A stretch of DNA of 64,000 nt. It comes from an uncultured bacterium (lineage in GTDB: Bacteria > Armatimonadota > Abditibacteriia > Abditibacteriales > Abditibacteriaceae). Of this stretch, positions 5,612 through 63,050 are shown in pieces. Under the pieces are notes generated by a model that made no database searches, was not told the DNA's origin, and was given only the letters and a program-made list of their open reading frames with translations. The stretch lies in the NCBI GenBank assembly GCA_963843795.1, contig CAWJLW010000005.1, forward strand, positions 1 to 64,000. The letters are read 5' to 3'. The position numbers were made by a program, and so were the translations under genes. Positions within the stretch are counted from its first letter, which is position 1; each line of letters starts with the position of its first letter.

Positions 5612-5732
5612 TTCGCCTCCACTTCTTGATGCTTAAACCAAACTTACACAAAGTCGCCCGCAAGTACTTGCAGCGCACAAAACCTTCTCACAAAGAAACG
5701 GTTTTGAACGCAACAAAGGGTGCAACTTAAAT

Positions 5733-7710
5733 CTATGGATTTACGGCGTTCTCCACTTTGCCGAGAATTTTTTCCATCACGCCGTTGGCTAATCCCTTGG
5801 CGCGCGTCTTGTAATCGTCGAGCGTCATGAGGTCGTCGGGAATGTTGGCGTAAATGTAATCGTCGCTCACGTTTTGAACCCACGGCCCGACCAAGCGGCC
5901 CGCCGTTTTGTGATAGTAGATCAAGCGATACGCGTAATTGCGCTGGCCACGATCTAAGAAAATCTTTTGCGCCGTCGAATTTTTCGCGGGCGCGACCTGA
6001 ACGTTGGTTTCGGTTTCCTTGCCAAATTGAACGTAGTGAATTTGTGCGGCGATTCGCACCACGTCTTTGGCTTTCATGTCGTCGGCGTCGCCCTCGACTT
6101 CGATATTCACCGGTCGCACCGGCGGCGTGAGCGTGACGCCTTCCCAACTGCCCGACTGCCACGTCGGGTTTGGCGGATACACGTTGCCGCCTTTCAAGCT
6201 CCACTGCGCCTGATACTGGTAATTGTCGGGGTTTTTGTCTTCACCGCGCGCGTAAGTCACTGAGGCGGCGACGCCGTTGTCCTTCAAGTACTTGGAATCT
6301 ATCGTGATGTGATCCTCAAAATCGCGTCCGCTCGTGCGCTTTTTGCGCACGTTCACCGTGACATAATTCACCGTATCGTCGAAGATTTCTTTGCCGTCCA
6401 AATCCATGATGAACTTGATATCGCGGTGCGAGAAAAACGGGTCGTTGAGATTGATCGACGCCACGCATTTCGGGTTGTCGCGCACGTTGTCGTACCAGTC
6501 GCGCAGGTTGGCCGTCATGCGAACCGGAATCGCAACGGGCAAGCGCGCATTGATCGTCCACACGCGATCCGTCATTTCGGTCTTGCTTTTGAAAACGCGC
6601 TGGTCGTAGGAATTAAAAGTGCCCGGCGGGGGCGCTTTGATGCCGTCCTTTCTCGTCTTGCGGCGCGGAAACCGAGCCGGACGGCTTTTCGGTGAACGTC
6701 GCCATGAAGATTTGCGTGAAGGCATCGAAAAGTTTGGTCGCCAGTTCGCCTTCGACGCGCGCGTTCCAATCGAACTTCACCAAGCCTTTATCGACCAAGA
6801 ACTGCAATTGCGTCTGGTTTTCCTTGTAAGTTTTGGAATCGGTCACGTCAGTTCCAAAAATCCCGAACGGGCCGTGCTTGACTTCCTTGTGATAAGAAGT
6901 GTATTGCGACTTTAATTCCTCGAAATCCTGACTGATTTTGGACGCGTGAAACTCGACGCGGCCTTGCACGGCGGGCAGCATCGCGTAGCACACGGTATCG
7001 GTCGAAATCGAAACGTCGGCGATGCTGCTGGTTTTATCGAAAGTTGCGGCCAAAAGCTGCGCGCCGTTGCTGGAAAGCCGCGCCGCCGCCGCGATTTTCT
7101 CGCCCGGCATCAGCGGCGCTTTGCCCGAAGTCACAATCGAAGGCGTGAGAGTTTTGTCGGTCAGCGTGCCCGAAATAATTTGAAACGATGCGGCACCGGC
7201 ATCGGCGGGCGCTTCGACGGGCGCCGCACCCACAATTTCGGCGGCCTGCATTCCCGTAGGAATGCGCGTTTGCAACGTCGGCGATTTCCACACGGCAAGC
7301 GCGCGGCTGCTGCCCTGACGAAGTTGCGCCTGCGCTTCGTTTTTCTGCTCGGCGGAGAGGCCGAACTCCATCAGGAAGTGCAAAAGCGCGCCGCTCACGC
7401 CGCCCTGCTCCTCGCTTTTTTCGGTGACGAATTTCATGAACAGAAACTGCGGCGTTCCATCCGGGCTGCGCGAAAGATGCAAATTCGTCGGCAGGTAATA
7501 GTACTTGGGTTTGGTCGGCGTCGAATCGAGCGTCGGCAGCAGAATAACTTTAGTGCCGTCTTTCAAAGTCAGCTCGCGCCGCCCGTCATATTCCACGCTC
7601 GCCGCGTGCAGCGACTGCGCGCGACACGCCGAATATTCGCCCGCCAGCAACAACGCCATTATTGCCAACCCAATCCATGCTTTAAGGTGTTTCATTATTT
7701 TGGCCCCCAA
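5733..7710 (-). pseudogene. Paralog family member 5, split by a single-base frameshift near 6650
   Basis: ORF 6613..7710 carries the signal peptide and N-terminal family motifs; ORF 5733..6725 carries the C-terminal motifs (INLNDPFF, VNYVTVNVRKKR). Removing one A from gagAAAggac (+ strand ttt 6649-6651) joins them as ...QDEKDGIKAPPPG... Could be a sequencing error. Confidence 0.8.
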
Positions 7711-7766
7711 CTGAAAAGAAATTTCGATAGCGCAAGTACTTGCGGGGCAAGTACTTGCAGGTGGCG

Positions 7767-9530: not shown

Positions 9531-9580
9531 GGCATCTGGCCTCGATAAAAGTGCGCTGCAAGTACTTGCAGCAGACAAAA

Positions 9581-11381
9581 TCACTCCGTTGGCGGCACCA
9601 GCACGAAATACGTTTCATCGGCGTTGCCCAAATCCTTGACAACCTGGCGGCCATCCTTGAAATACCAGGTCACACTGGCTTTGACTTTCGCGCCATGATC
9701 TTTGTAAATTGTGGTGGTCGAAGTACTTGTGGTGTCAGTCGCGCGCAAGGTGACGCGCGTGCGCTTGGTTTCGCCGATGAGCGGATAATCGAAATTGATG
9801 CTGGCGCTGGCGACTTGAGCGTCGGTGAATTTTCCCCGGTCCGCGTCAATTTCCATCGCGGTTTTATCGAGCGGCGGCACTAAACTAATCGCCGGATCGT
9901 TGGCTTTAATCCATTTGGCTCCGTCAGCGGGCACGCTCACGGTCTTGCGATTATGCACGCTCCACACGACTTGATATTCGTAATCGAGCCAGCTCGCGTC
10001 CTGCAATCCTAGGCGCGGATATGTGATGTCCTGCGATAATTTTCCGTCCTTGATGTCGTCCTGATTGATGCGCAAAGTGCCGGTAAAATCGGGCTGACCG
10101 TTCATTTTCTTGCGGAAATTGACTGCCACGAAATTAAGCGCGTCCTGAAAACTTCCGGCATAGTCGCCGTCCACTTGGAAATACACTGGACGAAACTCAA
10201 AGGCGGCATCGGCTAAGTTCACAATGCGAAAATAGCGCGGATCGTTTTTGAAAGCGTCATACAAACCGTGAATGTTGCCCGCCGTGTTGACCGGAACTTT
10301 CACCGTCGAGTTTTTCGTCATCACAATCGAGAAGGTGTTTTGCCGGATGTCTTTGCGGTTTTTCAAGACGAACTGATTGTCGGTGTAATACGGCTGATCT
10401 TTGCCGCCGGAAAACAAGTTGTAAAGCCAACCGGCTTTCTGGCGTCCGGCAATTTGGCCTTCCTCAACGGCGGCTTCGCGCGGCGGATCAGCGCTCCATC
10501 CGGTCTTGGTGTCGAACATAGTTTCGATGAGCTTGTTGCTGACTTGATCGACTAAGGCCTGCATATCGCCAGCTTTGAGGTCGAGACCTTTGGTGCGGTC
10601 GAGGACTTCGATTTTGATGTCGCCGTCGCGCTGCATCTTGTCGGTGATGTCTCGAATTTGGCGCTTGGTGTAACCGCCCTGCACGTTGGAAACGCTGGAA
10701 AAATGGGTGTAAATGGTGGAGACGTTGGCCGTGATGCGCGCGTCGAAACCCGTGACCATCGCTTCGTAATACGCGTTGACCGCGACCGAAACGTCCGAAG
10801 TCGGGCCGCTCAGGGAATCCCACAACAGCGTCGCGCCCTGCTGGTTCAAAATCGCGGCGATGGCGGCGCGGCTGCCGGGTGTGATTGGCGCTTTGCCCGA
10901 AGTCACCAAACTGCGCGTGAGGCCGCCTTCGCCGGTATTTTTGAGCACTGCCGAAACCACTTCAAAACTGCCCGGTACGTCCTCGCCCTCTTTGGCTTCG
11001 GCTTGCATCAGCGGCACCGGCCCAATCAGGCGCGCGCCGCCGACTTGCGTTTTTAATTTTTTCTCGATGTCGGTGACGACTTCGGGCGGGAGGGAAAATT
11101 CGATCAGCGCGTGGAACAGGCCGCCACCGGTTTTGCCTTTGGGATCAACGTATTTCAAGCACAAAAAATCCAGCGTGCCGTCGTCGTTGGTCGCCAGACG
11201 CGGATAAGCCGGAACGTAATAATAGGCTTTGGGATCGGCGTAATCTTGCAAAAGTTGAATGTTGTCAATGGTGAGCCGGCCTTGCGTCCATTTTCACCAG
11301 AGCGTGCGCGGCGCGCGGGCGCACCGCAAGTACTTGCAGTGCGACAAACATCAAAATCGAAGCAAGGCGCAAAGTTTTCAT
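9581..11381 (-). pseudogene. Paralog family member 3, frameshifted just after the signal peptide (near 11282)
   Basis: ATG at 11381 overlaps the upstream stop (ATGA) and reads MKTLRLASILMFVALQVLAVRPRAAHA-LVKMDA, then stops. Removing one base (gcaAggc) continues as GRLTIDNIQLLQDYADPKAYYYVP into ORF 9581..11251. Confidence 0.8.
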
Positions 11382-14691: not shown

Positions 14692-15453
14692 AACGGTCTT
14701 CTCCTTAATGTCCTTAGAAGCCGAATCGCTTTAACAGACAGAGTTTCCAGTGGGTTGTGGTCTGCAATTGACCTACTCCGCAGATGAATCCGCTTTCAGT
14801 GAAAGTTTTTCAGCGTGCTGCTGTGCCCAGATTTACCCGACCGGCATCCGGGCAACAAAGAGTTCAAATGACTTGATTCATTTGGCTCCTCGACTTCGAG
14901 GCCAGCGGACTGGCTTATCCAACGATAATTTCTGCGACAGGCATCAGCGTGCAATTCAGCTCGTGAAACCACATTTCAGTGTCTGACCTGCGTAGTCACG
15001 TAAAGGCTTCAGGTGCACTATGATGGTTCTGTCCATCTATAAATCGCTCCCAAACCGCGTCGTGTTTTTATCGAAGTTACGACTATTATAAGCGATATTT
15101 TCGAAAAAAAGCAAACGCATAATTTCAAAGATTTTCTATCCCTGAAATTATGCGTTTTTTCCTATCAGCACGACTGGCTAACACTGCCCGCAAAGGCAAA
15201 AATTCGCCTGCAAGTACTTGCAGCACGCATGAACCGCTCGCCCAGATACCAGCCGATCACTTGAGTCGTGTTAGTCCAGCGAGCGAAGTCGATACTTCGT
15301 TGCCAGAACGACGTTCGGAAAAGTTTTGGAACGAGCCGCAGCGCGTCATAGCTTGCCCAAATTTACCTGTGTAGACTGGCCCAGAATTCTATGCGAAAGT
15401 GGGATGATTGATGGGTAGCAGATCGTAGGTGAAAGGTCAGCCCATCAACGAGA

Positions 15454-16584: not shown

Positions 16585-16679
16585 GGGAAAAAAGCTAAAA
16601 GAAATCAACAATGCTGCCTGCAAGTACTTGCAGGCAGCATTGTGGGCATAAGTCGCTGCAAGTACTTGCAGGCGAGTTA

Positions 16680-19016: not shown

Positions 19017-20114
19017 GTGACACAAATCTCACTGCCGATTCGCGTTGGCATCGCCGGATTAGGTCGCAGTGGATGGAGCATCCACCAGCACACATTGAAA
19101 GATTTGACGGACTGCTACCAAATCGTTGCGGTTGCTGATGTTGACGCATCGCGCACCGCAGAAGCGCAAGCCGCTCACGGCTGCCGCGCCTATAGCAAAG
19201 TCGCTCAACTGGTTAACGACAAAGATGTGGATATGGTTGTCGTTGCAACACCAAACCGCTTTCACGCCGGCCATGCCTTGCAGGCTTTGAAAGCGGGCAA
19301 GCATGTGTTGTGCGAAAAACCGTTTGGCTTTACGACGGCAGACGTGGACGCCATGATTGCTGCAGCCGCAAAAACTGGCGTGGTATTGCAGCCTTTCCAG
19401 CAGCGGCGCTACGAACCAGATTTTCAAAAGGTTAAAGAAGTATGTCAAAGTGGTTTGCTGGGTGAAATCACTTTTATTCGCATTGCATGGCACGGCTTCA
19501 AGCGCCGCTGGGATTGGCAAACTTCGCGTGCTTTTGGCGGCGGCGAACTGTATAACAACGGGCCGCACCTGATTGACCACGGCATGGAACTGTTTGGCCC
19601 GTCCGATCCGCAGGTGTGGTGCGATTTGCGCCATTCACTCAACAGCGGCGACGTAGAAGATGACGTACGGGTAATTTTAAAGGGAGAAAACTCTCCGACG
19701 GTGCAGCTCGAATTAACTTCTACCACACCTTATTCACAGGAAAAGTGGCATGTCTGCGGCACATCGGGCGGACTGCACGGCGGAGGCGATAAATTGACTT
19801 GGAAATGGGTCGATTGGTCACAAATGCCCGAACGCCCGCAAGATTTGCGGCCCACGCCAGATCGCACCTACAACAGCGAGAAATTAAATTGGCAGGAAGA
19901 TTCGTGGCAACCCAACAGCCAAGCCGATACGGGTGCTGGCTCCGCGCCCGCGTCACAGCCGGTGGTTGAGCTTTATCGTGGCCTTTATAAAACCATTCGC
20001 GAAGGTGCCCCACAAGAGATCACGCCCCAGAGCATACGCCGCCGCGTTGCCGTGATGGAAGAATGTTACAAACAAAGCGGCATTCCCTTTCCCGCAAGTA
20101 CTTGCAGCGACTAA
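19017..20114 (+). CDS. Gfo/Idh/MocA family oxidoreductase
   Basis: 'VGIAGLGRSG', 'VVVATPNRFH', 'GKHVLCEKP', 'GGELYNNGPHLID'. Confidence 0.93.
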   Translation: MTQISLPIRVGIAGLGRSGWSIHQHTLKDLTDCYQIVAVADVDASRTAEAQAAHGCRAYSKVAQLVNDKDVDMVVVATPNRFHAGHALQALKAGKHVLCEKPFGFTTADVDAMIAAAAKTGVVLQPFQQRRYEPDFQKVKEVCQSGLLGEITFIRIAWHGFKRRWDWQTSRAFGGGELYNNGPHLIDHGMELFGPSDPQVWCDLRHSLNSGDVEDDVRVILKGENSPTVQLELTSTTPYSQEKWHVCGTSGGLHGGGDKLTWKWVDWSQMPERPQDLRPTPDRTYNSEKLNWQEDSWQPNSQADTGAGSAPASQPVVELYRGLYKTIREGAPQEITPQSIRRRVAVMEECYKQSGIPFPASTCSD

Positions 20115-22409: not shown

Positions 22410-22474
22410 AAAATGTCAAAAATTCATTAATGAGGCCGGTGCAGTACTTGCACCGGCTTTTGATGACTGCTGAA

Positions 22475-23950
22475 TCATGCAATGATTTGTTTAATTGGTT
22501 CTGCGCCTTCAACACCGACCAGTTTTTGATCAAGGCCTCCATAAAAATAGGTCAAACGATTGGGATCAATGCCCATTTGGTTCAGCACTGTCGCATGTAA
22601 GTTTTTGACTTTGAAAGGATCTTCCACCGCTACACTGCCCAATTCATCGGTCGTGCCCACGCTCATGCCGCCTTTAATGCCGCCTCCCGCCATCCACATC
22701 GTAAAGCCGTAGGAATTGTGATCGCGGCCCGTGCCGACGGCGTATTCTGCCGTCGGCTGGCGACCAAATTCTCCACCCCAGACGATAAGGGTTTCTTCCA
22801 GCAATCCGCGTTGCTTCAAATCTTTGAGCAAACCCGCGATGGGCTTATCGGTTTCTCCTGCGTGCAAGCGGTGATTTTTCTCGATGTCGTCGTGCGCGTC
22901 CCAAGTGGTTTCGACGTGCGCACCACCTGAATAAATCTGAATAAAACGCACGCCACGTTCCACCAAACGCCGCGCCATTAAACACTGCCGTCCAAACGAT
23001 TCGCTGCGCTTTTCGTTCAAGCCATACATTTCGCGGATATGCTCCGGTTCGTCCGCAAGATCGGTTGCTTCGGGCGCCGAACTTTGCATTTTATACGCGA
23101 GTTCGTATGAAGCGATGCGCGCCGAAAGATTGGAATTATCAGCGTGCAGCAGTTCGTGTTCTCCGTTATAGTCTTGCAGCGTGTCCAACATTTCGCGCTG
23201 CATATCGTCGGTGAGGCCCGCGGGCCGCTTCAAATCTAAAATCGGCGTGTCGGTAGCGTTAATCACCGTGGCCTGATAGGACGCGGGCATATAACCGCTG
23301 CTCCAGTTTTTGGCGCCCGAAATCGGCCCGCCGCGCGGATCGAGCATAACCACAAAACCGGGCAAATTCTGGTTCACCGTGCCCAAACCATAGTTAATCC
23401 ACGAACCAATACAAGGGCTGCCGCTGAGGATTTTTCCGCTGTTCATTTGCAGCATGGCCGAACCATGAATCGGCGAATCGGCAGTCATCGATTTAATGAA
23501 CGCGATATCGTCCACGCAGGTCGCAAGGTTAGGAAAAATTTCCGAGACCCACGCGCCGCTTTGTCCATACTGCTTGAAATCGAAACGGGTTTCCACGATG
23601 CGGCCCTGATTTTTATGACCGCCACGGCCAAAGGTTTTCACTTCGACCGTTTTATTGTCCATGCCTTTCATACGCGGCTTGTAATCGAAGGTGTCAATTT
23701 GGCTCGGACCGCCATACATATAAAGGAAAATGACACTTTTGGCTTTGCCAGCGAAATGGGGCTTTTTAGGCGCCAGTGGATTGACGAATTTACTCACTCC
23801 ATCGGCTGCAAGTACTTGCTTGCCCATGAATCCATCGTCGCCCAACATTTGCGCGAGGGCCAGCGAGACGAACCCTCCGCCGGTTTGCCACAAAAATTCG
23901 CGGCGCGTGCGTCCGCAAAATTCGCCTTGTTGCTTCGGTTTTTCTTTCAT
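22475..23950 (-). CDS. DUF1501 family protein (sulfatase-like fold, Tat motif)
   Basis: 'TRREFL', 'KAKSVIFLYMYGGPSQIDTFDYKP', 'ARRLVERGVRFIQ', 'WGGEFGR', 'GRDHN'. Confidence 0.93.
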   Translation of the reverse strand: MKEKPKQQGEFCGRTRREFLWQTGGGFVSLALAQMLGDDGFMGKQVLAADGVSKFVNPLAPKKPHFAGKAKSVIFLYMYGGPSQIDTFDYKPRMKGMDNKTVEVKTFGRGGHKNQGRIVETRFDFKQYGQSGAWVSEIFPNLATCVDDIAFIKSMTADSPIHGSAMLQMNSGKILSGSPCIGSWINYGLGTVNQNLPGFVVMLDPRGGPISGAKNWSSGYMPASYQATVINATDTPILDLKRPAGLTDDMQREMLDTLQDYNGEHELLHADNSNLSARIASYELAYKMQSSAPEATDLADEPEHIREMYGLNEKRSESFGRQCLMARRLVERGVRFIQIYSGGAHVETTWDAHDDIEKNHRLHAGETDKPIAGLLKDLKQRGLLEETLIVWGGEFGRQPTAEYAVGTGRDHNSYGFTMWMAGGGIKGGMSVGTTDELGSVAVEDPFKVKNLHATVLNQMGIDPNRLTYFYGGLDQKLVGVEGAEPIKQIIA

Positions 23951-23998
23951 AGAAATCCTCGAATGCTTGTGCAAGTACTTGCACAAGCATTTCTCTCG

Positions 23999-26611: not shown

Positions 26612-26878
26612 AATTCTTGTTCGCTCGAATTTCCTCTTCAGAGAACAACTTCAGTGTGATACAGTAACAAAAAGGAGCGAAGTAAGTTGCGCAATACTTT
26701 GAATCCAAGACAAAAGCAAACTTTTCCTGTCTACCCAATCCGGAATCAATTCAAACATATCAATCACTCTGCTTTATTCTTGTGCATAGCTCAATAAAGC
26801 GCTATCAAAACGCTCGCTACGTCCATACGCTTCTACCGCAAGTACTTGCAGGCCCGTTCGCTCTCAAGGCAACCTAGT

Positions 26879-32878: not shown

Positions 32879-32922
32879 CTTTGAAAAAGGTCCTGCAAGT
32901 ACTTGCAGGACCTTTTTCAAAG
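32879..32922. terminator. Perfect 44-bp palindrome centred on GCAAGTACTTGC; possible terminator of the par operon
   Basis: ctttgaaaaaggtcctgcaagt|acttgcaggacctttttcaaag, 30 bp downstream of the small par gene, with a T run on both strands. Confidence 0.6.
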
Positions 32923-36582: not shown

Positions 36583-36608
36583 AGCGCGGCAAGTACTTGC
36601 CGCGCATT

Positions 36609-38657: not shown

Positions 38658-38753
38658 AATTTTGTGCAGATGAAAGGGGAAGATGAAAGAAGATGGCGTT
38701 ACATTCTCTTTTTGAGCCGCAAGTACTTGCAGGGCGAACTCTTCTCTCCCTTC

Positions 38754-40559: not shown

Positions 40560-41428
40560 TCATCGAGCATTTGAATGGCTTGTTTCAAACTGCGGTGCAT
40601 ACGGTTGAACGAACCAGCCAATACTGAAATTTCGTCGTGTCCGCTCACTTTCACATCTTCGACTTCCATGTTCCCTTTGCTAATTTCATCGGCGATGCGC
40701 GAAAGCTGCGTGACAGGCGCGATCACGATATAGCGCAGCATGATATTGAGCGCGATAAGGGTGAAACCGAACACGCCGACCAAAGAAATCAGCAGGGCTT
40801 TAAAAGCTTGATTGGCGATGCCAACTGGCACCGCAGTCGGCACGGCAAGTACTTGCGCGCCAATGGTTTCGTTCAATTTCCAGCCAAATCCATTCTTCTT
40901 ACCGTAAACCGCTAGTTGCGTCGGTGGCGCAATTTTGGGTGTGGTGTGGCAAGTTAGACAACTTTTTTCCTTAACCACAATCGGCCGGGCCAGATAAAGA
41001 TAATCGCCTTTTTCCGTTGTGCGAATGCCGATGATTTCGGTTTTGCTTTTATCTTTGCGAAATTCATTGACGATATTGGCTTCCCAAGGCGCGGCCAAAT
41101 CGCGCAGATTGGTCGGATTCAGCGTGGCTTCCTTGTAGAAATAATCGGGATATTTCTTGCGCAGATAAGTAAAGTTTTCCGTCGCCGCGTAAGCCGGCAC
41201 AGTTTGCGGCACGAAGCGATCTTTCAATTGCGCGTTTAGTAAGGGTTTAATTTGCTTGGTGGTATAAGAGCGCGAAGCCATCGCGGTTTCCATCATAATG
41301 CGCGCGTTGCGCACCACTTCTTCGCGGGCGTTGCGCTGCAAAAGCGCATAGGCAAAATAGCCCGATGACAGCAAACCCAGCGAAAACACGGCGATAAATA
41401 CCAGATTAAATTTGGTCAATAATTTCAT
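40556..41428 (-). CDS. Membrane-anchored c-type heme (DUF3365/Tll0287-like) sensor with HAMP domain and no output domain
   Basis: Two TM helices flank 'YKEATLNPTN.RD' and the CLTCH heme motif; C-terminal HAMP 'PVTQLSRIADEISKGN...DEISVLAGSFNRM'. Confidence 0.85.
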   Translation of the reverse strand: MKLLTKFNLVFIAVFSLGLLSSGYFAYALLQRNAREEVVRNARIMMETAMASRSYTTKQIKPLLNAQLKDRFVPQTVPAYAATENFTYLRKKYPDYFYKEATLNPTNLRDLAAPWEANIVNEFRKDKSKTEIIGIRTTEKGDYLYLARPIVVKEKSCLTCHTTPKIAPPTQLAVYGKKNGFGWKLNETIGAQVLAVPTAVPVGIANQAFKALLISLVGVFGFTLIALNIMLRYIVIAPVTQLSRIADEISKGNMEVEDVKVSGHDEISVLAGSFNRMHRSLKQAIQMLDE

Positions 41429-41458
41429 AAAAGCTGCCTGGCAAGTACTTGCAGCGCA

Positions 41459-42364: not shown

Positions 42365-42415
42365 GAAAATTGATGTGTTGCAAGTACTTGCAGTGCCGCA
42401 TTTAACACGGCACAT

Positions 42416-44656: not shown

Positions 44657-44746
44657 AACGACACCTCACAGCGAAACAAATTTTTGCCAAATCTCGATCA
44701 TTTTTCATTTTAACGCTCTGCAAGTACTTGCGAAGCGAGACATTTA

Positions 44747-47282: not shown

Positions 47283-47528
47283 CGGAATCACCTCGTGTCT
47301 TATCAAATCGTGTTGCAAGTACCTGCAATGTTAATTGCGGCTTATTAAGTGACAATTGGCAATCGCTCAGCTTTTCGTGGCGTTCGATTTCGTTCATGCG
47401 CTGTAACACGTTTCAAACGCTTCGGGCAGGTGGACATTAAGCAAATCCCCAAATGCAAACGGCTCCGGCAACGAAAAAAGCATTCGTCGCCAGAGCCGAA
47501 AGCAGAGTTATCGTGCGGCGTGCGAAGC

Positions 47529-48353: not shown

Positions 48354-48443
48354 ACCTTTCCTCCTGACTTGAAAATGATTTGCGGCAAGTACTTGCAGTG
48401 TCTAATTTGGCCCTGCAAGTACTTGCAGGGCCAAATGCGCAAT

Positions 48444-50333
48444 TTACACCGGGACGATGCGAACTTTGACGCGTACATCGTCTTTGTAATGGTGCATCAA
48501 GACGCCACCTGCGCGACGGCGGGAAATCATGTGCTGATGATCGGGCGTATCAAATTCCGGCAATTGCACGGTGAGGCCATCGGCATCGAAATCGAAATAC
48601 GGTTCTCCGTTAATCCACACTTCATCGATTTTGATGCTGCCTGGCGGTAGAATGTCCGGCGAAACGCGCAGAATGTTGTCCTCAAAGCCATTAGCTTTGG
48701 GTTTGAAATACAAATCCAACGGCTGCTTGGTGATCAGCAGATTGGTGTAAACCGCCGCCAGATAACACAATTCTGTCGAGTGATAAGCGCCCATCGAGTG
48801 GCTGCCTTTGTTGCGCTCGTTACCCAGCAAGTAGGGCAGGCCATTGGCCAGCACGTTGAAATAGACCGCGCCCGAATCGGTATCGAGCATCCATGCATTG
48901 TAAAATGCCGAAGATTCGCGCGCCAATTTCAAATACTCTGGTGTTTTTAGGCAACCGTGCAGAATGAGATAAGCCAAAATGCCCTGTTCCTGCTGCCACC
49001 ATGCTTTACGGTCATGAAATGCCAGTCGATGAATTTCTTCGCCGGGCGCCACTTGACGTTCCATCACGTCATACCAGCCGCCGCGCTGCTTATCCATACC
49101 AACTGCGGGCATCGCATCGGCCAACTTTGTGGCGAGTGCCGTATATTTGTCTTTGGGGCGCAGCGAGTTCATGCGCATCAAATTCCACGCGATTTTCAGG
49201 TCGTGACCGGCCACAGCGCGGTCTTGCTGCCAACCCCAGACTTTGTCGGGCGACCAATCGTCGAAGAATTTTTCCTGCACGAACGGGCTGCCATCTTTGG
49301 CCGGAAAATGCTCTTCGATGGTGTCGAAAGTCATCGCCAGAAAGTCGGCGTATTCATCCTTTCCAGTTGCCAGCCACAAGTTGATGAGATAAGCCGGAGC
49401 GTGATCGCCGACCGAGTTCCAGTTTTTGCGCGCTTGATTGTGCGCCAGAGAATCGGCTTTGGGATCGAAAGTATCGGTCGTGATGTGCGAGTAGTAGCCG
49501 CCTTTTTCTGAAGTATCCAGATAGTACTTGTTGAACAGGTTGATGGTCTTTTTGGTGTCTTCGAGAATGCTCGCTTCGCCGGTGATGCGATAAGTTTGCA
49601 TCGGGCCAGCGAGCGCATAAATCTGCTCGTAGGCCGGAACCGCGCCCCAGTCATCGCCAAACAGTGAACCCAAATGTTCTGTAGTGCCATTTTCGGTCAC
49701 TTCGAGTGCATGAAGCCAATAAACCACATCTTCGCTTTCTTCGCGGTCGCGCTTGCAGATTTTCTCCTGCAAGTACTTGGTGCCCTTTTCCGCAGCCTCG
49801 AGATAACGATCTTCGCCGGTCAATAAGTAAGCGGTGGCAAAACCATAAACGGTGCGCGAAATGGTATCGGTTTCCTGAATGCCGCTATCGAGTTTGCTGC
49901 CATCGAGATACAAATTGGTGCGGTATTTGTTGTAATCGATTTTGCCGCCTTCGAATTGAGCGTTGATGTAGAAATCAGCGATTTCACGCACCTGATTAAT
50001 CCACCAGTCTTGCTTTTCAAAAACGTAATTGTCCGGCGCGCGGCCCGGAAAAACCAGATGCTTGGCTTCAAACGGATGACCATCGCCTTCGGGATAATAA
50101 ACGCCGTAAGCGAACAAATATTGGCCTGGAACGAGCAGTTCTTTCAGCTTGCCGCTGGCATCTGAATAAGGCTGGCCTAAGTTGCGCACAAATTCGGAGA
50201 AGGTGGCCGAAGTGAGCTTGCCGGAAAATTCGCTGCCGCCGGGCGTTTTGAGGCTGAAAGTACCTTTCTCGACATCGGCCTCGGTAATGTAACCGGCGAT
50301 GGTGTCCGAAAATGAAAAATCAATTGTGTTCAT
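48444..50333 (-). CDS. AGE-family (N-acylglucosamine 2-epimerase-like) protein with N- and C-terminal extensions
   Basis: 'QETDTISRTVYGFATAYLLTG..RYLEAAEKG', 'KNWNSVGDHAPAYL', 'GHDLKIAWNL', 'KAWWQQEQ', 'KGSHSMGAYH'. Confidence 0.85.
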   Translation of the reverse strand: MNTIDFSFSDTIAGYITEADVEKGTFSLKTPGGSEFSGKLTSATFSEFVRNLGQPYSDASGKLKELLVPGQYLFAYGVYYPEGDGHPFEAKHLVFPGRAPDNYVFEKQDWWINQVREIADFYINAQFEGGKIDYNKYRTNLYLDGSKLDSGIQETDTISRTVYGFATAYLLTGEDRYLEAAEKGTKYLQEKICKRDREESEDVVYWLHALEVTENGTTEHLGSLFGDDWGAVPAYEQIYALAGPMQTYRITGEASILEDTKKTINLFNKYYLDTSEKGGYYSHITTDTFDPKADSLAHNQARKNWNSVGDHAPAYLINLWLATGKDEYADFLAMTFDTIEEHFPAKDGSPFVQEKFFDDWSPDKVWGWQQDRAVAGHDLKIAWNLMRMNSLRPKDKYTALATKLADAMPAVGMDKQRGGWYDVMERQVAPGEEIHRLAFHDRKAWWQQEQGILAYLILHGCLKTPEYLKLARESSAFYNAWMLDTDSGAVYFNVLANGLPYLLGNERNKGSHSMGAYHSTELCYLAAVYTNLLITKQPLDLYFKPKANGFEDNILRVSPDILPPGSIKIDEVWINGEPYFDFDADGLTVQLPEFDTPDHQHMISRRRAGGVLMHHYKDDVRVKVRIVPV

Positions 50334-50436
50334 GTCTGTTCCTTTGCTGGATGAATTGATATTGTGCGACTCTTTGCGGCATCACTCCCAAGTTGTACCC
50401 TGCAAGTACTTGCAAGGCACAACTGAGTGCAATTTC

Positions 50437-53246: not shown

Positions 53247-53302
53247 AGTGGCTCTCAAATTGTGTGTGAAATGTGCTGCAAGTACTTGCAGCACATTTTG
53301 AT

Positions 53303-53920: not shown

Positions 53921-53946
53921 GTGAAATTGTCCTTTCAGGTGCTGAT

Positions 53947-54786
53947 TTAGGTGCCGGGCGGCACGACGTTTTGGGCCAATCGGAAGTCGGTTAGTTCGAT
54001 GACGTGAACATTGCGCACCGAGTCGAAGCGCACGCTCCACGAGTAGGGATAGTAGCCCCCGCGAGGGTAAACCTGCGGCTGCTTAATAGCTTCTTTTAGA
54101 ACCTGCTTGCTTCTCAGGAAATCAATCGTCGGCCCTAGCGCATATGCGTTCAGGTGGCCATCGAAGAAGAAAAAATTCTGCCCCAGCGTCGTGAGTGGTG
54201 GCCGGTTCGAGGGCTGAGCGGGATCGTCCACGCTGACGCCGATGCCTGGAACGACAACGCCTTGCGGATTAAGTTCATCGACCACGCGCACTGTGCCCTG
54301 CGGCATTTCGTTGGCCGCGATGGGCTTGAGTTCGAGCGTGTAGGGCGGCGAAGTTTGCAGCAGCGGCCGGATGATAAACGTGAGGTGAAAATGCGCCGGT
54401 TCGGGTGTGGCCGTGTTGGGCGGCTCGTGGCCCGAAGAATAGACCAGCACGTCGCTGGTGAGCGGCGTGGCGTGTGTTTTGGGCGGCAGCGGGCTGATGA
54501 ACGGCGCGGCGGCCTGATCTTCGGGCACATCGGGCAAATTATTCAGCGCCGCCGGCGTGATTTCAATGCCCAGACGAAGCGGGATGCCGTTGCGCAGCTC
54601 GATAACATTGCGGGCAAAGCCATTACCCAGCGGTTGATCGGCGCTGTAAAATATGCCTGAATCGGCATTGTAATATTCGTTGCCCAGATTGGCGCCACCG
54701 CAGCCGGACAAAGTTGCCAGTGCGCCGGTCGCCGTAATGAGCGTGAGGGCTGCAAGTACTTGCAGGGGCTTTTGAGATGTTTTCAT
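53947..54786 (-). CDS. Lipoprotein, DUF5602-like paralog B
   Basis: Lipobox 'LSGC'; 'GHEPP...PAHFHLTF'; 'KQPQVYPRGGYYPYSW'. Confidence 0.72.
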   Translation of the reverse strand: MKTSQKPLQVLAALTLITATGALATLSGCGGANLGNEYYNADSGIFYSADQPLGNGFARNVIELRNGIPLRLGIEITPAALNNLPDVPEDQAAAPFISPLPPKTHATPLTSDVLVYSSGHEPPNTATPEPAHFHLTFIIRPLLQTSPPYTLELKPIAANEMPQGTVRVVDELNPQGVVVPGIGVSVDDPAQPSNRPPLTTLGQNFFFFDGHLNAYALGPTIDFLRSKQVLKEAIKQPQVYPRGGYYPYSWSVRFDSVRNVHVIELTDFRLAQNVVPPGT

Positions 54787-54801
54787 GGTTCTGTGTTCCT
54801 C

Positions 54802-55713: not shown

Positions 55714-55729
55714 CTTAATCCTTTCCGTT

Positions 55730-56827: not shown

Positions 56828-56934
56828 TTCCTCTTCCTTTTTCATCTATGGCCTTTGTGCGGACAGAACGTAATGATTGGTGCGCCGCAAGCACTTGGGC
56901 AAGTACTTGCGGCGCGTATAAATGGTTGTCAGCT

Positions 56935-58560
56935 TTAAAATCGCGTATTGATGCCAACGACGTAATCGCCGAAAGTCAGGCTGTTGCCGCGTCCGCTGAG
57001 CTGGGCGGCTTTGAAATACAACTCGGAATTGCGACTGACCTGATAGCTTGCGAAACCGAACACGCCATTGGGCGCTTTGAAATTCTGCGCCGAAAACGCA
57101 TACGACGCATAAACGCCATATTTCACTTTGCGTGTGATCCACAGGTAATCAGTAGCGATGGAATAAGCGTTGAAATTATTCGACGCCGTGTAATCGAGCG
57201 TGAAAAATTTGCTGTCGTCGAAGATAAAATCGAAGCCTGCGCGCCACACCGGCATTTGTTTTCCAGTTTTGGGCAGGATGCGATATAAAAGCTGTGTGCG
57301 ATAGTTCGCGCGCCGGTTGCCGTCGGTGTATTTAAAATAACGATAGGAAAACGTCGTGTCGATTTTTTTAGCCAAGGGATATTCCGCGCCCACGCTGTAA
57401 TCGTCATACAGAGTTTTCTTGACCAGTTGAAAATACGATTCCGGCGCGTAGAACTGGTTGTTCACGTTCTGGAAATACGAATCATGGCGTCCGGTCGAAG
57501 CGTAAAAGCGTTTGCGCGCCGGGTCGGGCACATAAGAGATTTTGAAGTCATACAGAAACCGATCCGGCGCGGCGTCGTAAGTCACGTTGCTCAGAAAAAT
57601 GCTGCCTTCCCATTTTTTGTAATAGGGTTCGAGCAGCAGGTTGAGCGTGTTTTTCTTCAAGGTGTCGTTATCAGCGGCGGTGGGAATATCGGGCGAAACT
57701 GACTGCGGGTTGTTGGTGTTATTGGGATTGTTGTTGTTGCGATAATGCCCTGTGCCCGCTGTGAGCGTGATGCGGCCATACGGCGTGCGAAACGTTGGCC
57801 CGGCGCCGTAAGCATATAAATCGACATCGCGGTCGTCCGAATAATAGTGCGCCAAAGCCGTGTAAGTCGGACGTTTGGCGAATTTGACTTCTTTCAAGCC
57901 CGCTGTGGCACCCGCGCGCGCTTGCGTAATTTGCTCCTTGACCGCCGAGGGCATTTGCGCGCCCGCCGGCCCGTCCGGGTCGGGCGTCATCGCCAGAATG
58001 TTGTTGTATATCTTCTCCGCTTCAAAAGGCCGGTCGATAGTAATCAGAAAATCGGCATAACCCAGCAACATCGGAAACGATGGCATCGCGGGCGCTCCTC
58101 CGGGCGCCCCACCGGGTGCGCTTCCTGCGGGCGCTGCATCTCCGGCAGTTCCCACCGGCGCTGCTGGCCCCGGCGCCGTGCCCGGCCCGCCGCCGATTCC
58201 GCCACCACCGACCGAAGGCGGCGCAACATCTGTTTGGGCCAGCAAAACGCGCGTTTTGCTGGGGCCGTTGGTTATTTCCGGTGTGGCTTCTGGAGTAGCC
58301 GTCACGGTATCCGTTGCGGTATCCGTTGGCTGGGTCGCGTTTGGCGATGCGGTGTCGATGGGTGCTGCCACGCCGCTGGCTTTTGAAGTGCCTTCGATGT
58401 AGGCGGTTTCCGACAGATGACACACGGTTTTGCCGCCTGCAAGTACTTGCGCGGCGTGCGCAACAGGCAATTGCAGGCACGGCAACACGCCCAGAGCGGG
58501 CAGCAAGTACTTGCAGTGCGTGCGACGACGAGAAAGCGTGTCTGCGATGAGGGTATTCAT
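56935..58560 (-). CDS. Exported protein with Pro/Gly/Thr linker and probable C-terminal outer-membrane beta-barrel
   Basis: Signal-like N-terminus; aromatic-rich alternating strands; ends in 'YVVGINTRF' (terminal Phe typical of OMPs). Confidence 0.6.
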   Translation of the reverse strand: MNTLIADTLSRRRTHCKYLLPALGVLPCLQLPVAHAAQVLAGGKTVCHLSETAYIEGTSKASGVAAPIDTASPNATQPTDTATDTVTATPEATPEITNGPSKTRVLLAQTDVAPPSVGGGGIGGGPGTAPGPAAPVGTAGDAAPAGSAPGGAPGGAPAMPSFPMLLGYADFLITIDRPFEAEKIYNNILAMTPDPDGPAGAQMPSAVKEQITQARAGATAGLKEVKFAKRPTYTALAHYYSDDRDVDLYAYGAGPTFRTPYGRITLTAGTGHYRNNNNPNNTNNPQSVSPDIPTAADNDTLKKNTLNLLLEPYYKKWEGSIFLSNVTYDAAPDRFLYDFKISYVPDPARKRFYASTGRHDSYFQNVNNQFYAPESYFQLVKKTLYDDYSVGAEYPLAKKIDTTFSYRYFKYTDGNRRANYRTQLLYRILPKTGKQMPVWRAGFDFIFDDSKFFTLDYTASNNFNAYSIATDYLWITRKVKYGVYASYAFSAQNFKAPNGVFGFASYQVSRNSELYFKAAQLSGRGNSLTFGDYVVGINTRF

Positions 58561-58592
58561 GAGCGTATCTTTTTGCGGCGTTTTTATGTGGT

Positions 58593-58985: not shown

Positions 58986-59008
58986 TTTTGTCTCCACTCC
59001 CAAAATAA

Positions 59009-60538
59009 TTACGAATTTAAAATCATTGCCGCCGCGCGTTCGCCGATCATAAAGCACGCTGCCTGCGTATTGCCACTGGTTACAGTCGGCATCACCGAAG
59101 CATCGGCCACACGCAGATTTTCTACGCCGCGCACGCGCAACTGCGCATCGACCACAGCTTGCTCGTCATTGCCCATTTTGCAAGTCCCGACCGGATGCCA
59201 GATCGTGGTCGATTGTGTACGAATGTATTCATTGAGATCGGCGTCCGGGCCGGGCGCTATTTCCGCCGCGTAGCCTTCACTCATCGCTTTGGTTTGGGCT
59301 AATTCGCGAATGATGCGCACCGCTTCGACAAAGGTTTGCGCGTCGGCATCTTCTTGCAAGTACTTGGGGTCGAGAATCGGTGCGTCCTGCGCATGGCCGG
59401 AACGCAATCGCACTTGTCCTCGGCTATCGGGCTGCACCATAATCGGCAGGAAAATGCCCACTGGAATAGGAATGTTCAACACCGGCGCAAGCGGCGTCGG
59501 AACCATCGGCGTGAAATTGATTTGTAAGTCCGGCGGCGCGTCCGCGCGCTCGGTGCGCGTATTGACGAACAGGGTGTTGCCAGTCAGCAGTTGCGGCATC
59601 GGACGTTCGGTTTTGGACGCGAACACTACTGGCAATTGCATGTGATCTTGCAAATTCTGTCCGACGCCCGGTAAATTCACCACGACTTCAACGCCATGTC
59701 CCTGCAAATGACCGGCGGGGCCGATGCCCGACAACATCAACAATTTGGGCGACAAAAACGCGCCCGCGCAGACGATGATTTCACCTGCTGCATTTGCACG
59801 TTTGGTTTGGCCGTTCTGAACGTATTCAACGCCAACGGCGCGCGTGCCTTCAAACAGAATGCGCGTCGCTTCGGCACCAGTTTTAATCGTCAAATTATCG
59901 CGTTCCCGAACCGGATCGAGATATGCGACTGAGGCGCTGGCGCGTTTTCCGTCTTTGGTGAGCGAAAATTGTAGTAGCCCGGCGCCGTTTTCCTGACGGT
60001 CGCCGTTGATGTCCCAATTTGGCCCATCGTAGCCCAATTCGGTCGCGCCGTTCATAAAGGCTTCGCTGCGTGAATCGGCATCGGGATTGTCGATGATGCT
60101 CATCGGCCCGCCGACTCCGTGAACTTCGGAAGCCCCGCTACCGCTGTAATCTTCGATGGCCTTGAAAACTGGCAGCACGTCTTCGTAACTCCAACCCTGC
60201 GCACCTTGCGCCCATTCATCAAAGTTGCGACGATTACCGCGCACCCACATCATGGCGTTAATCGAAGTGCTGCCGCCGACGACTTTGCCTTGATTAATGA
60301 GAATCTGGCGCTCGCTGGCTGCTGACTGTTCGTCAGTAAAAAATTTCCAATCGACATCCGAACCCCACAGACGCACGAAACCGCCCGGATCGTGAATGTC
60401 CGCGCTGCTGTCCGCGCCGCCAGCCTCCAGTACAAGTACTTGAGTGTTGCTTTCGGCGCTCAAACGATTGGCGACGGCGCAACCCGCAGCGCCGCTACCG
60501 ATAACAATGTAATCGTAAGTTGATGACTGTTTAGCCAT
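59009..60538 (-). CDS. GMC (glucose-methanol-choline) oxidoreductase
   Basis: 'YDYIVIGSGAAGC', 'GKVVGGSTSINAM', 'SPKLLMLSGIG', 'WHPVGTCKMG', 'LRVADASVMP...GNT'. Confidence 0.95.
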   Translation of the reverse strand: MAKQSSTYDYIVIGSGAAGCAVANRLSAESNTQVLVLEAGGADSSADIHDPGGFVRLWGSDVDWKFFTDEQSAASERQILINQGKVVGGSTSINAMMWVRGNRRNFDEWAQGAQGWSYEDVLPVFKAIEDYSGSGASEVHGVGGPMSIIDNPDADSRSEAFMNGATELGYDGPNWDINGDRQENGAGLLQFSLTKDGKRASASVAYLDPVRERDNLTIKTGAEATRILFEGTRAVGVEYVQNGQTKRANAAGEIIVCAGAFLSPKLLMLSGIGPAGHLQGHGVEVVVNLPGVGQNLQDHMQLPVVFASKTERPMPQLLTGNTLFVNTRTERADAPPDLQINFTPMVPTPLAPVLNIPIPVGIFLPIMVQPDSRGQVRLRSGHAQDAPILDPKYLQEDADAQTFVEAVRIIRELAQTKAMSEGYAAEIAPGPDADLNEYIRTQSTTIWHPVGTCKMGNDEQAVVDAQLRVRGVENLRVADASVMPTVTSGNTQAACFMIGERAAAMILNS

Positions 60539-60552
60539 AAAATTTCTCGTGT

Positions 60553-61344: not shown

Positions 61345-61355
61345 AGCCGTTGTGT

Positions 61356-62942
61356 TTATTTTTGTTCGTTCAACAACATTTGCGCGACAATATAGCCCGA
61401 GCCTCCGCCCAAGCCCAAGCCAGGATGTGTGGCAGCACCGATTTGATACAGATTCGGCACCGGTGTGCGATGTCCGTCTTGGCTCGGCAACGGGCGCAGG
61501 TTGTAGCTCTGCGCGAAGGCGTGCGAACCGCTGTAAGGGTCGCCGTAATTCCAGTTCAAATTCGACTGGGCCAAATCCAGCGGGCTGATAATTTTGCGCG
61601 CCAGAATCGAATCTTTCAAGTTCGGAATATGACGGCCCACGATGTCGATCATGCGGTCGGCGTAGCGATTCTTCAAATCCTCGCTCCACGTTCCGTCGCC
61701 GACTTCGATTTCATCCAGTGCATCGCCCACCACTTCAAACGGCGTGTCCAAACCTTGCAGCACCATCACCGCTTGGCCTTCGGGCGCGCGGCTCGGGTCG
61801 AGCGTGGTCGGTGTGCCAACGCCAATCGTCGGATCGGCGGGCAACAAGCGGCGCGCGGCTTCGTTGAAGTTGCGCGACACGCCATCCAAACCCGCCGTAA
61901 CGTGTGTATATGTCGCCTTATTCAACCGCTCGTCGTGCCACTGCGGCGCTTCCGATAAAGCCAGATGAATCGCCAGAACGCTGTGACCATAGCGGAATTT
62001 GCCCGCTTGTTCTTGAATTTCCGGCGGCACGACATCCGATTCGCTCAGTAATTTTTGATACAACTGATCGGGATTGACGGTTGCGATGACCGCTTTATTC
62101 GCACGATATTCTTCGCCATTTTCCGTCCGCACGCCGACGGCTTTGCCATCTTCGACGATGATCTGATTCGCGGTTGTGTTCGCGTAGATTTTGCCGCCCT
62201 GATCTTTGACCAGTTGCGCCAGTGCGCTGGCCATTTTCTCCGCGCCGCCGACGCCGACCGGCAGACCGGCGCTTTGTGCGCCCATGCCGAAAACCTTGAC
62301 CCAGAAACCGCTGTTGGCCTCGTCTGGCCCGTGACCCGAATGCAAAACCCACGGCGCCAAAAACGCTTTCCACACTTTGGATTGAAACGATTCTTCCAAC
62401 ACTTCGCGCGCTGTGCGCAAAAACTCCGCAGCAAATGGCGTCGGTTTGCCTTCGGATGTCGCCATCAAACTCGCCATCATCGCTTTCGATTCCGGCGTGG
62501 TTAGGTCGCTTTTGAGCAGCGTGAAAACTTCGTTGGCGTGCGCGCCCAAACCGCCCAACATATTCGCCCACGCCGCGCCATCGCCGGGCGCCAAACGCTC
62601 GGCTTCGGCCATGTTGGCTTCCATGTCGGTGGTCAGAATCGTCGCGCTGCCATCGTGCAGCGAAACTCCGGCAGGCGTGTCCGAATTGGCCATTGTCAAG
62701 CCGCGCGTCGCGAGATCGGGCGCGAGATCGGCATAGGCTGCTGAAATCGCAAAGAGAATCAAGAAGCCCGCATACACATCGTGGACAAAGCCGGGCAGGG
62801 TGATTTCTTGCGTGCGAAGGCCGCCGCCGGGCCGGTCGTTGCGGTCGAGAATCAACACGCTCCAACCGGCTTTGGTCAGATAGGCGGCGTTCACTAAAGC
62901 GTTGGGGCCAGCCCCAATAATTACTGCATCATACGATTCCAT
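61356..62942 (-). CDS. Phytoene-desaturase-like NAD(P)/FAD-dependent oxidoreductase
   Basis: 'DAVIIGAGPNAL...YL...GWSVLILDR...GGG', 'DPSRAPEG', 'RTPVPNLYQIGAATHPG.GLGGGSG'. Confidence 0.9.
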   Translation of the reverse strand: MESYDAVIIGAGPNALVNAAYLTKAGWSVLILDRNDRPGGGLRTQEITLPGFVHDVYAGFLILFAISAAYADLAPDLATRGLTMANSDTPAGVSLHDGSATILTTDMEANMAEAERLAPGDGAAWANMLGGLGAHANEVFTLLKSDLTTPESKAMMASLMATSEGKPTPFAAEFLRTAREVLEESFQSKVWKAFLAPWVLHSGHGPDEANSGFWVKVFGMGAQSAGLPVGVGGAEKMASALAQLVKDQGGKIYANTTANQIIVEDGKAVGVRTENGEEYRANKAVIATVNPDQLYQKLLSESDVVPPEIQEQAGKFRYGHSVLAIHLALSEAPQWHDERLNKATYTHVTAGLDGVSRNFNEAARRLLPADPTIGVGTPTTLDPSRAPEGQAVMVLQGLDTPFEVVGDALDEIEVGDGTWSEDLKNRYADRMIDIVGRHIPNLKDSILARKIISPLDLAQSNLNWNYGDPYSGSHAFAQSYNLRPLPSQDGHRTPVPNLYQIGAATHPGLGLGGGSGYIVAQMLLNEQK

Positions 62943-63050
62943 CAAGCGTTCCCTTGGCCCCGCAAGTACTTGCAAGGTGTTTTTCTCAAATTATGAACGC
63001 GCAGCCGCTGCAAGTACTGGCTGCAGTACTTGCAGGGCGCTATTGCCGCT

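Follow-up and report, generated by a model that had tools for sequence, protein, structure and literature searches.

Motifs iterated throughout a genome at the density reported here are well described in few lineages, namely the Neisseriaceae, the Pasteurellaceae and the cyanobacteria. According to the papers cited here, the DNA uptake sequences (DUS) of Neisseriaceae form dialects around a kept core (PMC3630211), uptake sequences leave a peptide imprint in the proteome (PMC2817400), and kinking of DNA at the uptake signal sequence (USS) has been proposed for Haemophilus (PMC3458573). The role of the cyanobacterial highly iterated palindrome HIP1 has been debated for three decades: in one cyanobacterium HIP1 increases transformation (10.1101/2024.09.10.611283), and HIP1 also co-varies with pilus genes (PMC13756078), while a structural role (PMC5861425) and a model of methylation-directed repair (PMC4390886) have also been proposed. 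Here we analyze GCAAGTACTTGC, a 12-letter palindrome found in 64,000 nucleotides of an uncultured bacterium of the Abditibacteriaceae (contig CAWJLW010000005.1, positions 1 to 64,000; hereafter, the window). The window is the beginning of contig C5 of a genome designated G000, the best named protein homologs of which belong to Abditibacterium utsteinense (77%) and to Abditibacteriaceae bacteria. All the evidence points to recognition of this site by a symmetric protein, in double-stranded DNA that is bent, and to an advantage for the cell, or the DNA fragment, that has one such site within about 1 kb.

The palindrome is a real, genome-wide signal and not an artefact. The initial annotation listed at least 33 exact copies in the window and named five of many near-matches; exactly 33 copies, spanning 5660..62973, were counted at the same coordinates, and each near-match was found in its place, while 100 dinucleotide-preserving shuffles of the window contained zero copies. 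The enrichment extends beyond the window, to relatives bearing AGTAC-cored dialects and to the whole of G000 (4.30 Mb), which contains 2,567 copies, or about one per 1.7 kb, distributed over all 11 contigs at 7–63 copies per 100 kb. This is the most frequent 12-mer of the genome. Perfect copies are in strong excess over copies with a single mismatch (about 2,560 vs about 506); shuffled control palindromes of similar composition occur 0–2 times each (38 listed), and CGATCG is under-represented, with an observed-to-expected ratio (O/E) of 0.20. Density is even along the 3.6-Mb contig, at 6.0–6.6 copies per 10 kb on both replichores. Separately assembled metagenome contigs, about 70% identical to G000, share the motif core at about 1.2 per kb, which excludes an adapter or assembly artefact. 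Short-read contigs from two sequencing runs also match parts of the window, and one covers the copy at 20094 unaltered; the run is possibly the source sample and is not counted as support. None of the sequencing runs listed as matching was an RNA run. We found no description of the 12-mer or of the family palindrome in the searched literature, supplementary k-mer tables and most subscription papers being outside reach. Rfam gave zero matches in the window, and a 16-mer scan of the genome collection gave 36 single, unrelated matches among the matches listed. No motif-rich phage contig was found in viral scans (6 loci for the 16-mer; 80/119 loci for the 14-mer of the type found in genome G009), the hosts of such phages being possibly unsampled.

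The flanks are the most informative part of the signal. The initial annotation held them to be unconserved, a claim refuted by a flank consensus, by copy-specific pairing and by a 10.7-bp phasing. The consensus, CTGCAAGTACTTGCAG, occurs 879 times; it is GC-rich, followed by an A/T tract 8–11 bp outward. Left and right flanks pair above shuffled pairs to about 13 bases, with stems that differ from copy to copy, and such copy-specific pairing involves about one-fifth of the copies. Phasing was measured at 1,309 copies that are isolated and have no long stem. There, GC troughs lie symmetrically about the dyad at 15, 25, 36, 46–48, 57 and 67 bp, with a best period of 10.7 bp, and A/T phasing in the arms is 4–5 times the genome background. 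In successive two-turn windows outward from 20 bp, the AA/TT/AT amplitude declines through 0.067, 0.034, 0.021 and 0.013, compared with 0.009–0.010 for control anchors chosen to have the same first tract; the decay is smooth, without a footprint edge. The phasing persists within genes and in arms lacking the first tract, peaks exactly at the palindrome center (z 26.8), and is graded: perfect copies give 0.37 standard deviations (sd), single mismatches 0.25, other AGTACT sites 0.16 and other GTAC sites 0.03. Seven other palindromes gave −0.07 to 0.06, and motif-free hairpins −0.15 sd; no phasing was seen in 74 arms of the seven small G000 contigs.

Close copies share one helix face. Thus, the 146 pairs of copies separated by 16–110 bp show phasing with a period of about 10.6 bp (10.5–10.75; R 0.36), a degree reached by none of 2,000 jittered nulls and maintained after removal of duplicates, while pairs 110–400 bp apart show no phasing. 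The A/T trough register about the dyad is that of the nucleosomal WW/SS pattern (W, A or T; S, G or C): the fifth trough lies at 55–58 bp, and the nucleosomal WW site at superhelix location 5.5 lies 56–59 bp from the dyad (PMC4261538), a comparison that uses one site position from that source, the others following from the period. A bend centered on the palindrome fits this arm register. The DNA therefore appears to be shaped for bending in a single plane at the palindrome, the major groove of the core lying on the inside of the bend, which is the geometry that binding by a symmetric protein would require.

The copies are evenly spaced. Copies per bin are under-dispersed (variance/mean 0.51–0.63), and the coefficient of variation (CV) of gap length is 0.47–0.74 in six AGTAC-type sets. 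Genes were called with a custom hexamer caller (3,493 genes, 86% coding), and it should be noted that assembly frameshifts make starts and some genes uncertain. Copies within genes avoid intergenic copies: their median distance to an intergenic copy is 1,043 bp, compared with 693 ± 33 bp for random coding positions. With spacing examined to 5 kb, genes hold 0.9 copies per 10 kb less than 200 bp from an intergenic copy, and 4.7 at 2–3 kb. The ratio of far to near density (1.5–5 kb vs within 300 bp of an intergenic copy) is 3.3; the 99th percentile among 1,857 control 7-mers is 1.40, and only parts of the motif match its value. Less than 100 bp from a spacer, in-gene density is 0.93 if the spacer holds a copy and 2.6 if it holds none. 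The 7-mer null and the distance to motif-free spacers serve as the control for gap filling; an alternative, 60 synonymous near-variants, showed a similar weak gap-filling trend and is not a neutral control. Even spacing together with gap filling indicates that a new site is worth more where it has no neighbor within a distance of some 1 kb or slightly farther.

The motif appears scarce in recently acquired DNA, as uptake sequences are. The seven small contigs carry 7–35 copies per 100 kb vs 63 on the main contig, and the two largest motif gaps measure 26.5 and 25.7 kb. Both gaps hold genes that, recognized by eye, we take to be transposase-like, and one presumably also holds a type I restriction system. 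Contig C4 of G000 (L286–L290) is a 100-kb prophage or phage-plasmid with head, portal and tail genes, integrase, two ParA genes and tRNA-Leu; it also encodes two very large helicase/methyltransferase-like proteins. Composition-based binning may favor contigs that, like C4, bear the motif. Contig C3, with 3 motif copies in 40 kb, bears a cluster that by eye resembles an extracellular contractile injection system (sheath, tube, baseplate, ATPase) and that itself has zero copies.

Although 70% of the 2,567 copies are intergenic (1,797), roughly half of all spacers above 40 bp in length holding one, 759 lie within genes and 11 on gene edges. All three frames are used (497, 147 and 115 copies), and the resulting peptides mark the proteome: QVLA occurs 568 times vs 38 expected, ASTC 133 vs 4, and KYL 316 vs 114. 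Density within genes is lowest in the fifth of genes with the most ribosomal-protein-like codon use, at 1.35 vs 2.4 per 10 kb. The sites arise in place, overwrite amino acids and keep their positions across dialects, as judged from 117 in-gene sites aligned to orthologs at least 50% identical in stretches fetched from relatives. Of these sites, 94 are gap-free within a 30-base window. Amino-acid identity to motif-free relatives is 0.30 at the sites compared with 0.60 for the same genes, so that sites either fall in tolerant places or have overwritten residues. AGTACT stands in the same aligned column at 9/24 sites in metagenome relatives, 3/9 in genome G001 and 3/17 in the GAGTACTC group, giving a shared core at 15/50 sites over the three motif-bearing groups; the background is about 0.001 per base, with 0/57 in motif-free genomes and 0/10 in genome G006. 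A core kept in the same column across dialects indicates that positions are inherited while the flanking letters change.

Beyond G000, the exact 12-mer has 0–3 copies per genome in 40 relatives. AGTACT itself numbers 2,813–4,733 copies in G001, G009, G012, G015 and G019, and 1–285 in the other 21 family genomes. The dialect of G001 is CAAAGTACTTTG, that of G009, G015 and G019 is TCGAGTACTCGA, and that of G012 is CGAGTACTCG; the density of these AGTAC-cored dialects is near 1 per kb. A looser form of the G000 dialect occurs at about 1.2 per kb in 33 metagenome loci chosen by a 22-base pattern, mostly with a GC content of 62–68%. In G006, 2,412 copies of AGTACGGTCGA form half-sites of a 24-bp dyad, AGTACGGTCGA-WW-TCGACCGTACT (L043–L045, L204–L206, L220–L221), which has the most regular spacing of all (gap CV 0.47) and lies 80% outside long open reading frames (ORFs), mostly in intergenic DNA. 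A seeming strand bias in G006 was rejected as an effect of listing. Three further genomes, G007, G016 and G018, carry an unrelated non-palindromic motif, CAGCCACGYC (1,199–2,444 copies per genome; e.g., L046–L048, L139–L140, L158–L159), with near-random spacing (gap CV 0.89–0.98) and weakly phased arms (z 4.2, the center having been chosen by hand and then checked by an offset scan). No strand bias was found for the non-palindromic family motifs in the stretches read. CAGCCACGYC is the family's best candidate for a classical uptake sequence.

An iterated AGTAC motif is absent from 20/27 family genomes, and AGTACT exceeds 0.7 per kb in only 5/251 genomes of the phylum, all of this family, the others having at most about 0.24. 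Patchy presence within the family and a second, unrelated motif in three genomes are consistent with a specificity that is dispensable and evolves anew. GTAC is nearly purged (O/E at most 0.31) in 16/30 genomes of the class, in samples of 11–133 kb. In these 16 genomes and in genera g17 and g56 of the phylum, GTAC or AGTACT is nearly gone (down to 0–5 AGTACT per genome), often together with a purging of CTAG.

Our tentative explanation, to which we give confidence a little below the halfway mark, is that the palindrome is a lineage-specific tag of self DNA for natural transformation, spread by drive. A two-fold symmetric protein would read the palindrome in double-stranded DNA, bend the DNA there, and act in natural transformation, either by folding incoming DNA into a U-turn for uptake or by favoring tagged DNA in later recombination. 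Fragments with a tag, with a better tag or with more bendable arms would be fixed more often, and the motif would thus spread by drive, gains occurring mostly where no tag lies within about 1 kb; a shift in the specificity of the reader would set off genome-wide rewriting of sites. Transformation is favored over chromosome folding because of dialect turnover, the loss of the motif from 20/27 family genomes although these have the tested chromosome proteins in common, and the second, unrelated motif. Moreover, G000 encodes ComEC, ComEA, DprA, a pilus ATPase, prepilin peptidase, a pilus cluster and secretins. The genome also contains more than 35 DUF1559-type prepilin-like genes and has 7–8 secretin matches.

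Several observations weigh against this explanation. Competence genes are equally present in motif-free genomes; a pattern screen of an assembly with frameshifts revealed no clearly basic ComP-like pilin among the 39 prepilin-like frames listed; and the candidate families examined did not yield the reader of the motif. DUS and USS cores are non-palindromic, and the USS is described with just two T-tracts (PMC3458573), not with arms phased over 60–100 bp. The other dialects are phased weakly, although in the same phase (z 1.8–3.0). Gaps lie near 23/117 aligned in-gene sites vs 7–10% of background windows, so small indels may be involved at some sites. The prophage-like contig C4 bears 24 copies in 100 kb and the plasmid-like contigs 4–7 in 20 kb, which exceeds the expectation for DNA not moved by transformation. 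Finally, even spacing and phasing suit an intracellular anchor equally well. The interpretation in the initial annotation is partly supported: the motif is a genome-wide, probably protein-read signal of the HIP1 or uptake-sequence kind.

The search for the reader eliminated several proteins. HU was rejected, being single copy in 5/5 genomes and not tracking the dialect. The same applies to the first HNH-repeat paralog (core in 26/26 relatives, with helices invariant in the 24 aligned) and to the second, which is present with and without the motif; a single-sequence model of the latter has a predicted local distance difference test score (pLDDT) of 75, gave no fold match at Z ≥ 5 and matched only its own family in the atlas. 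GyrA was rejected as well. One basic pilin match proved to be a frameshift artefact, and no further lead came from screening 42 small basic proteins. Two family-wide proteins with three HNH_repeat (PF18780) units (L260:4698-5285 with orthologs in L262–L279, and L216:6837-7529), one of which often has a long Lys/Ala/Pro tail resembling histone H1-type nucleoid proteins, and an additional G009 protein with about eight repeats (L261:4038-5597) are possible undescribed nucleoid proteins. GyrA (C6:1261880-1264426 in G000; L415–L424) carries an insertion of 11–16 residues near the C-gate in 9/11 aligned genomes, absent from G003 and G017. The 16S primer sites of G000 lie at C6:24234-25715 and the sole 23S probe match at about C6:2982775, so that the rRNA genes may be unlinked or the assembly incomplete.

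The alternative closest to our explanation makes the palindrome a chromosome-folding anchor, at which a dimeric nucleoid protein bends or wraps 100–150 bp and pins loops or supercoil tips about once per kb, with spacing maintained by selection. We regard it as possible, if rather unlikely. Symmetric arms in the nucleosomal register, phased close pairs, under-dispersed counts with low gap CV in the six AGTAC-type sets, flat density around the chromosome, the copies on prophage- and plasmid-like contigs and the structural role proposed for HIP1 (PMC5861425) all accord with it. It is harder to reconcile with the 20/27 family genomes that lack iterated AGTAC yet have the tested chromosome proteins (HU and the two HNH-repeat proteins) in common, with the absence of a histone fold in 5 genomes (0/5 for PF00808 and PF09123, which divergent folds could escape), and with the smooth decay of the arms. 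Drive could probably rewrite thousands of sites, despite the price paid in amino acids, more easily than site-wise selection could, and gene length explains part of the even spacing of intergenic copies. Taken further, the same idea suggests a bacterial chromatin-positioning code in which a strict, dialect-bearing palindrome would be the dyad of a 100–150-bp wrap in nucleosome register, about one per kb. The overwriting of genes would keep the spacing even, and the reader would be an undescribed dimer, not a histone, that changed its specificity several times in the family; this, too, we consider conceivable and on balance doubtful. More improbable is a repair ratchet of the kind modeled for HIP1, in which an orphan methyltransferase marks GTAC/AGTACT and biased repair turns near-matches into consensus copies with little function of their own. 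Such an enzyme exists: a pattern screen found two amino-methyltransferases in G000, one in an island and one an orphan N6/N4 enzyme (C6:2517365-2518135) whose closest solved structures are beta-class enzymes. Orthologs (56–75%), of which two are broken, occur in 22/27 family genomes, with every one of the 7 AGTAC-motif genomes represented, and in 0/227 sampled genomes outside the family; the enzyme is found in 20/23 genomes with iterated or nearly purged GTAC vs 2/8 with ordinary GTAC, a split that is descriptive, these being related genomes in groups drawn post hoc. Against the ratchet, the C-terminal region of the enzyme is nearly identical across dialects and motif-free genomes and does not track the dialect, other lineages purge AGTACT without an ortholog, and neither gap filling nor phased arms are predicted. 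The methyltransferase neighborhoods are not conserved and contain no consistent upstream GTAC cluster; the end of an Mrr-like gene lies just upstream in G005 (homolog match; L192) and, by eye, in G014 and G041 (L194, L196). The enzyme is a candidate writer only, and the methylation link suggested in the initial annotation is accordingly reduced to a lead: the orphan methyltransferase is present, but it is also present in motif-free genomes.

Three other explanations are less probable still. Hard-wired strong gyrase sites are very improbable. The symmetry, 4-bp center, 10.7-bp period and arm length resemble the 130-bp E. coli motif (PMC6379681), and 29/31 genomes have one GyrA-type match and no second; however, the E. 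coli gyrase matrix (supplement sheet DS10) is in anti-phase with the arms at the palindrome dyad (r −0.47), correlating with them only at a 5-bp offset (r 0.43–0.44), the GyrA DNA-gate region of 11 genomes shows no dependence on dialect, and gyrase recognizes shape and not a strict 12-mer. Even less can be said for an RNA-level element, in which case selection on transcripts would have spread the palindrome as the common apex of two-way intrinsic terminators. At least 9 extra paired bases extend 182/291 copies between convergent genes, 262/1,234 between tandem genes and 22/265 between divergent genes; the motif lies inside 608/897 perfect intergenic hairpins of the main contig, and folds built on it are stable on both strands. 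Yet only 7/759 copies within genes are so extended, phasing is a property of double-stranded DNA that is missing around motif-free hairpins, and long arms occur at 2/137 sites in G009 and 0/109 in G012, hairpin-free dialects that largely refute a primary role in RNA. The terminator-like hairpins are thus a secondary use of the palindrome. The least probable account, largely refuted, is a remnant or end of a mobile repeat: a repetitive extragenic palindrome (REP) with its REP-associated tyrosine transposase (RAYT), a miniature inverted-repeat transposable element (MITE) or an Ssn-associated repeat. It could appeal to the intergenic majority, the many hairpins and the position of the G006 dyad outside long ORFs. 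In-gene copies are collinear with orthologs, though, and stems are copy-specific. As the initial annotation held, the motif is not an insertion sequence or MITE end or a CRISPR repeat. The search for a RAYT-like partner gave a single weak Y1 transposase match, in G000, and nothing in G006. No small Ssn-like GIY-YIG gene was found in G000, the two matches there belonging to frames of 450 and 672 aa.

The phased flanks, the one-face arrangement of close copies, gap filling, origin in place across dialects and secondary hairpin use are new here. Phased arms and gap filling make the function of a palindrome directly testable, predicting a bent dimer footprint and a working range of about 1 kb; HIP1 and DUS genomes lend themselves to the same tests. 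The family is a natural experiment, with several dialects, a 24-bp dyad, an unrelated motif and purged genomes among close relatives, and its named species, Abditibacterium utsteinense, also has the orphan methyltransferase. Either outcome would be new: a palindromic, bend-centered uptake-signal system, or a sequence code for bacterial chromosome folding.

The individual copies in the window are given in Table 1. Among the surrounding genes, eight of the same orientation at 2121-14691 encode proteins of 280–700 aa without a Pfam match, as do genes at 47529-50333 and 53947-58560. The region 36609-44656 contains DUF4231-like, TrkA/RyR ion channel, Tll0287-HAMP, TIR and caspase-TPR genes, and appears defence- or signalling-like.

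Table 1. Copies, hairpins and near-matches of the palindrome in the window
Feature	Position	Context
Palindrome copy	5660..5671	Intergenic
Palindrome copy	7732..7743	Intergenic; next copy 15 bp on
Palindrome copy	7747..7758	Intergenic
Palindrome copy	9558..9569	Intergenic
Palindrome copy	11326..11337	Intergenic
Palindrome copy	15210..15221	Intergenic
Perfect hairpin	16608..16643	Copy 16620-16631 with 12 paired bases per side; intergenic
Palindrome copy	16658..16669	Intergenic; 38 bp past preceding copy
Palindrome copy	20094..20105	Final codons of Gfo/Idh/MocA oxidoreductase gene
In-gene copy	23808..23819	DUF1501 gene, QVLA frame
Hairpin	23962..23991	Copy 23971-23982 with 9 paired bases; intergenic
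Palindrome copy	26838..26849	Between divergent genes
In-gene copy	27766..27777	Glycoside hydrolase 2 gene, QVLA frame
In-gene copy	29350..29361	Same glycoside hydrolase 2 gene as 27766 copy, QVLA frame
In-gene copy	29833..29844	Same glycoside hydrolase 2 gene as 27766 copy, QVLA frame
44-bp perfect hairpin	32879..32922	Apex is copy 32895-32906; A/T tracts; terminator-like on both strands
In-gene copy	35589..35600	WD40 gene, QVLA frame
Palindrome copy	36589..36600	Between convergent genes; 5 additional paired bases
Palindrome copy	38719..38730	Intergenic
In-gene copy	40845..40856	QVLA frame
Palindrome copy	41441..41452	Intergenic
Palindrome copy	42380..42391	Intergenic
In-gene copy	44220..44231	Caspase-domain gene, QVLA frame
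Palindrome copy	44720..44731	Intergenic
Palindrome copy	48385..48396	Intergenic; next copy 30 bp on, one A/T tract common to both
Hairpin	48405..48436	Copy 48415-48426 with 10 paired bases
Palindrome copy	50402..50413	Intergenic
Hairpin	53269..53298	Copy 53278-53289 with 9 paired bases
Palindrome copy	54752..54763	Near predicted gene start; start codon uncertain
Palindrome copy	56899..56910	Intergenic
Palindrome copy	58439..58450	Predicted 5' part of gene
Palindrome copy	58503..58514	Same predicted gene as 58439 copy, 64 bp away
Palindrome copy	62962..62973	Intergenic
Near-match	267..279	One base extra
Near-match	22441..22451	One base short; in short hairpin
Near-match	47315..47326	Single mismatch
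Near-match	49769..49780	Single mismatch
Near-match	59356..59367	Single mismatch

Compared with structural and mobile elements, the G000 motif shares individual features with each. Like the E. coli gyrase motif (PMC6379681), it is symmetric, with a period of about 10.7 bp (GC period 10.75 bp) and arms reaching about 65 bp; unlike that motif, which has a degenerate core, it has a strict palindromic core and the opposite dyad phase. It shares the A/T trough register about the dyad with the nucleosomal pattern (PMC4261538), from which it differs in its sequence-specific center, in an amplitude that falls outward and in that searches with two Pfam families in 5 genomes found no histone gene. Abundant intergenic hairpins are common to G000, to REP and bacterial interspersed mosaic elements and to Ssn-related repeats (PMC11893778), but here it is the center that is conserved and not an end tag, copies are common in genes, and no transposase or small nuclease is linked. 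Chi is polar and strand-biased, whereas the G000 motif is palindromic.

The likeness to uptake sequences and to HIP1 goes further. With DUS and USS the motif shares thousands of copies, dialects, terminator use and peptide imprint (PMC3630211, PMC2817400, PMC2397512), as well as scarcity in acquired DNA and flanking A/T tracts (PMC3458573). It differs in that the core is palindromic and is itself the hairpin apex, in arms phased for several turns on both sides, and in that no receptor pilin was found among the frames screened; G006 has an inverted-pair form, unlike the single-palindrome apex of G000. HIP1 (GCGATCGC) and the alternative palindromes of cyanobacteria (PMC4390886, PMC5861425, PMC13756078) likewise occur about once per gene in both coding and non-coding DNA, and resemble the G000 motif in conserved positions, lineage variants, a host orphan methyltransferase and a function debated between transformation and chromosome structure. 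The G000 motif has another sequence, belongs to another phylum, is 12 bp long and strict, and is mostly intergenic; the dialects of its family change between genera and within one, and phased arms and gap filling, seen here, are not described in the accessible passages on HIP1. The G000 motif thus works like HIP1 or an uptake sequence, while by sequence it is a member of neither.

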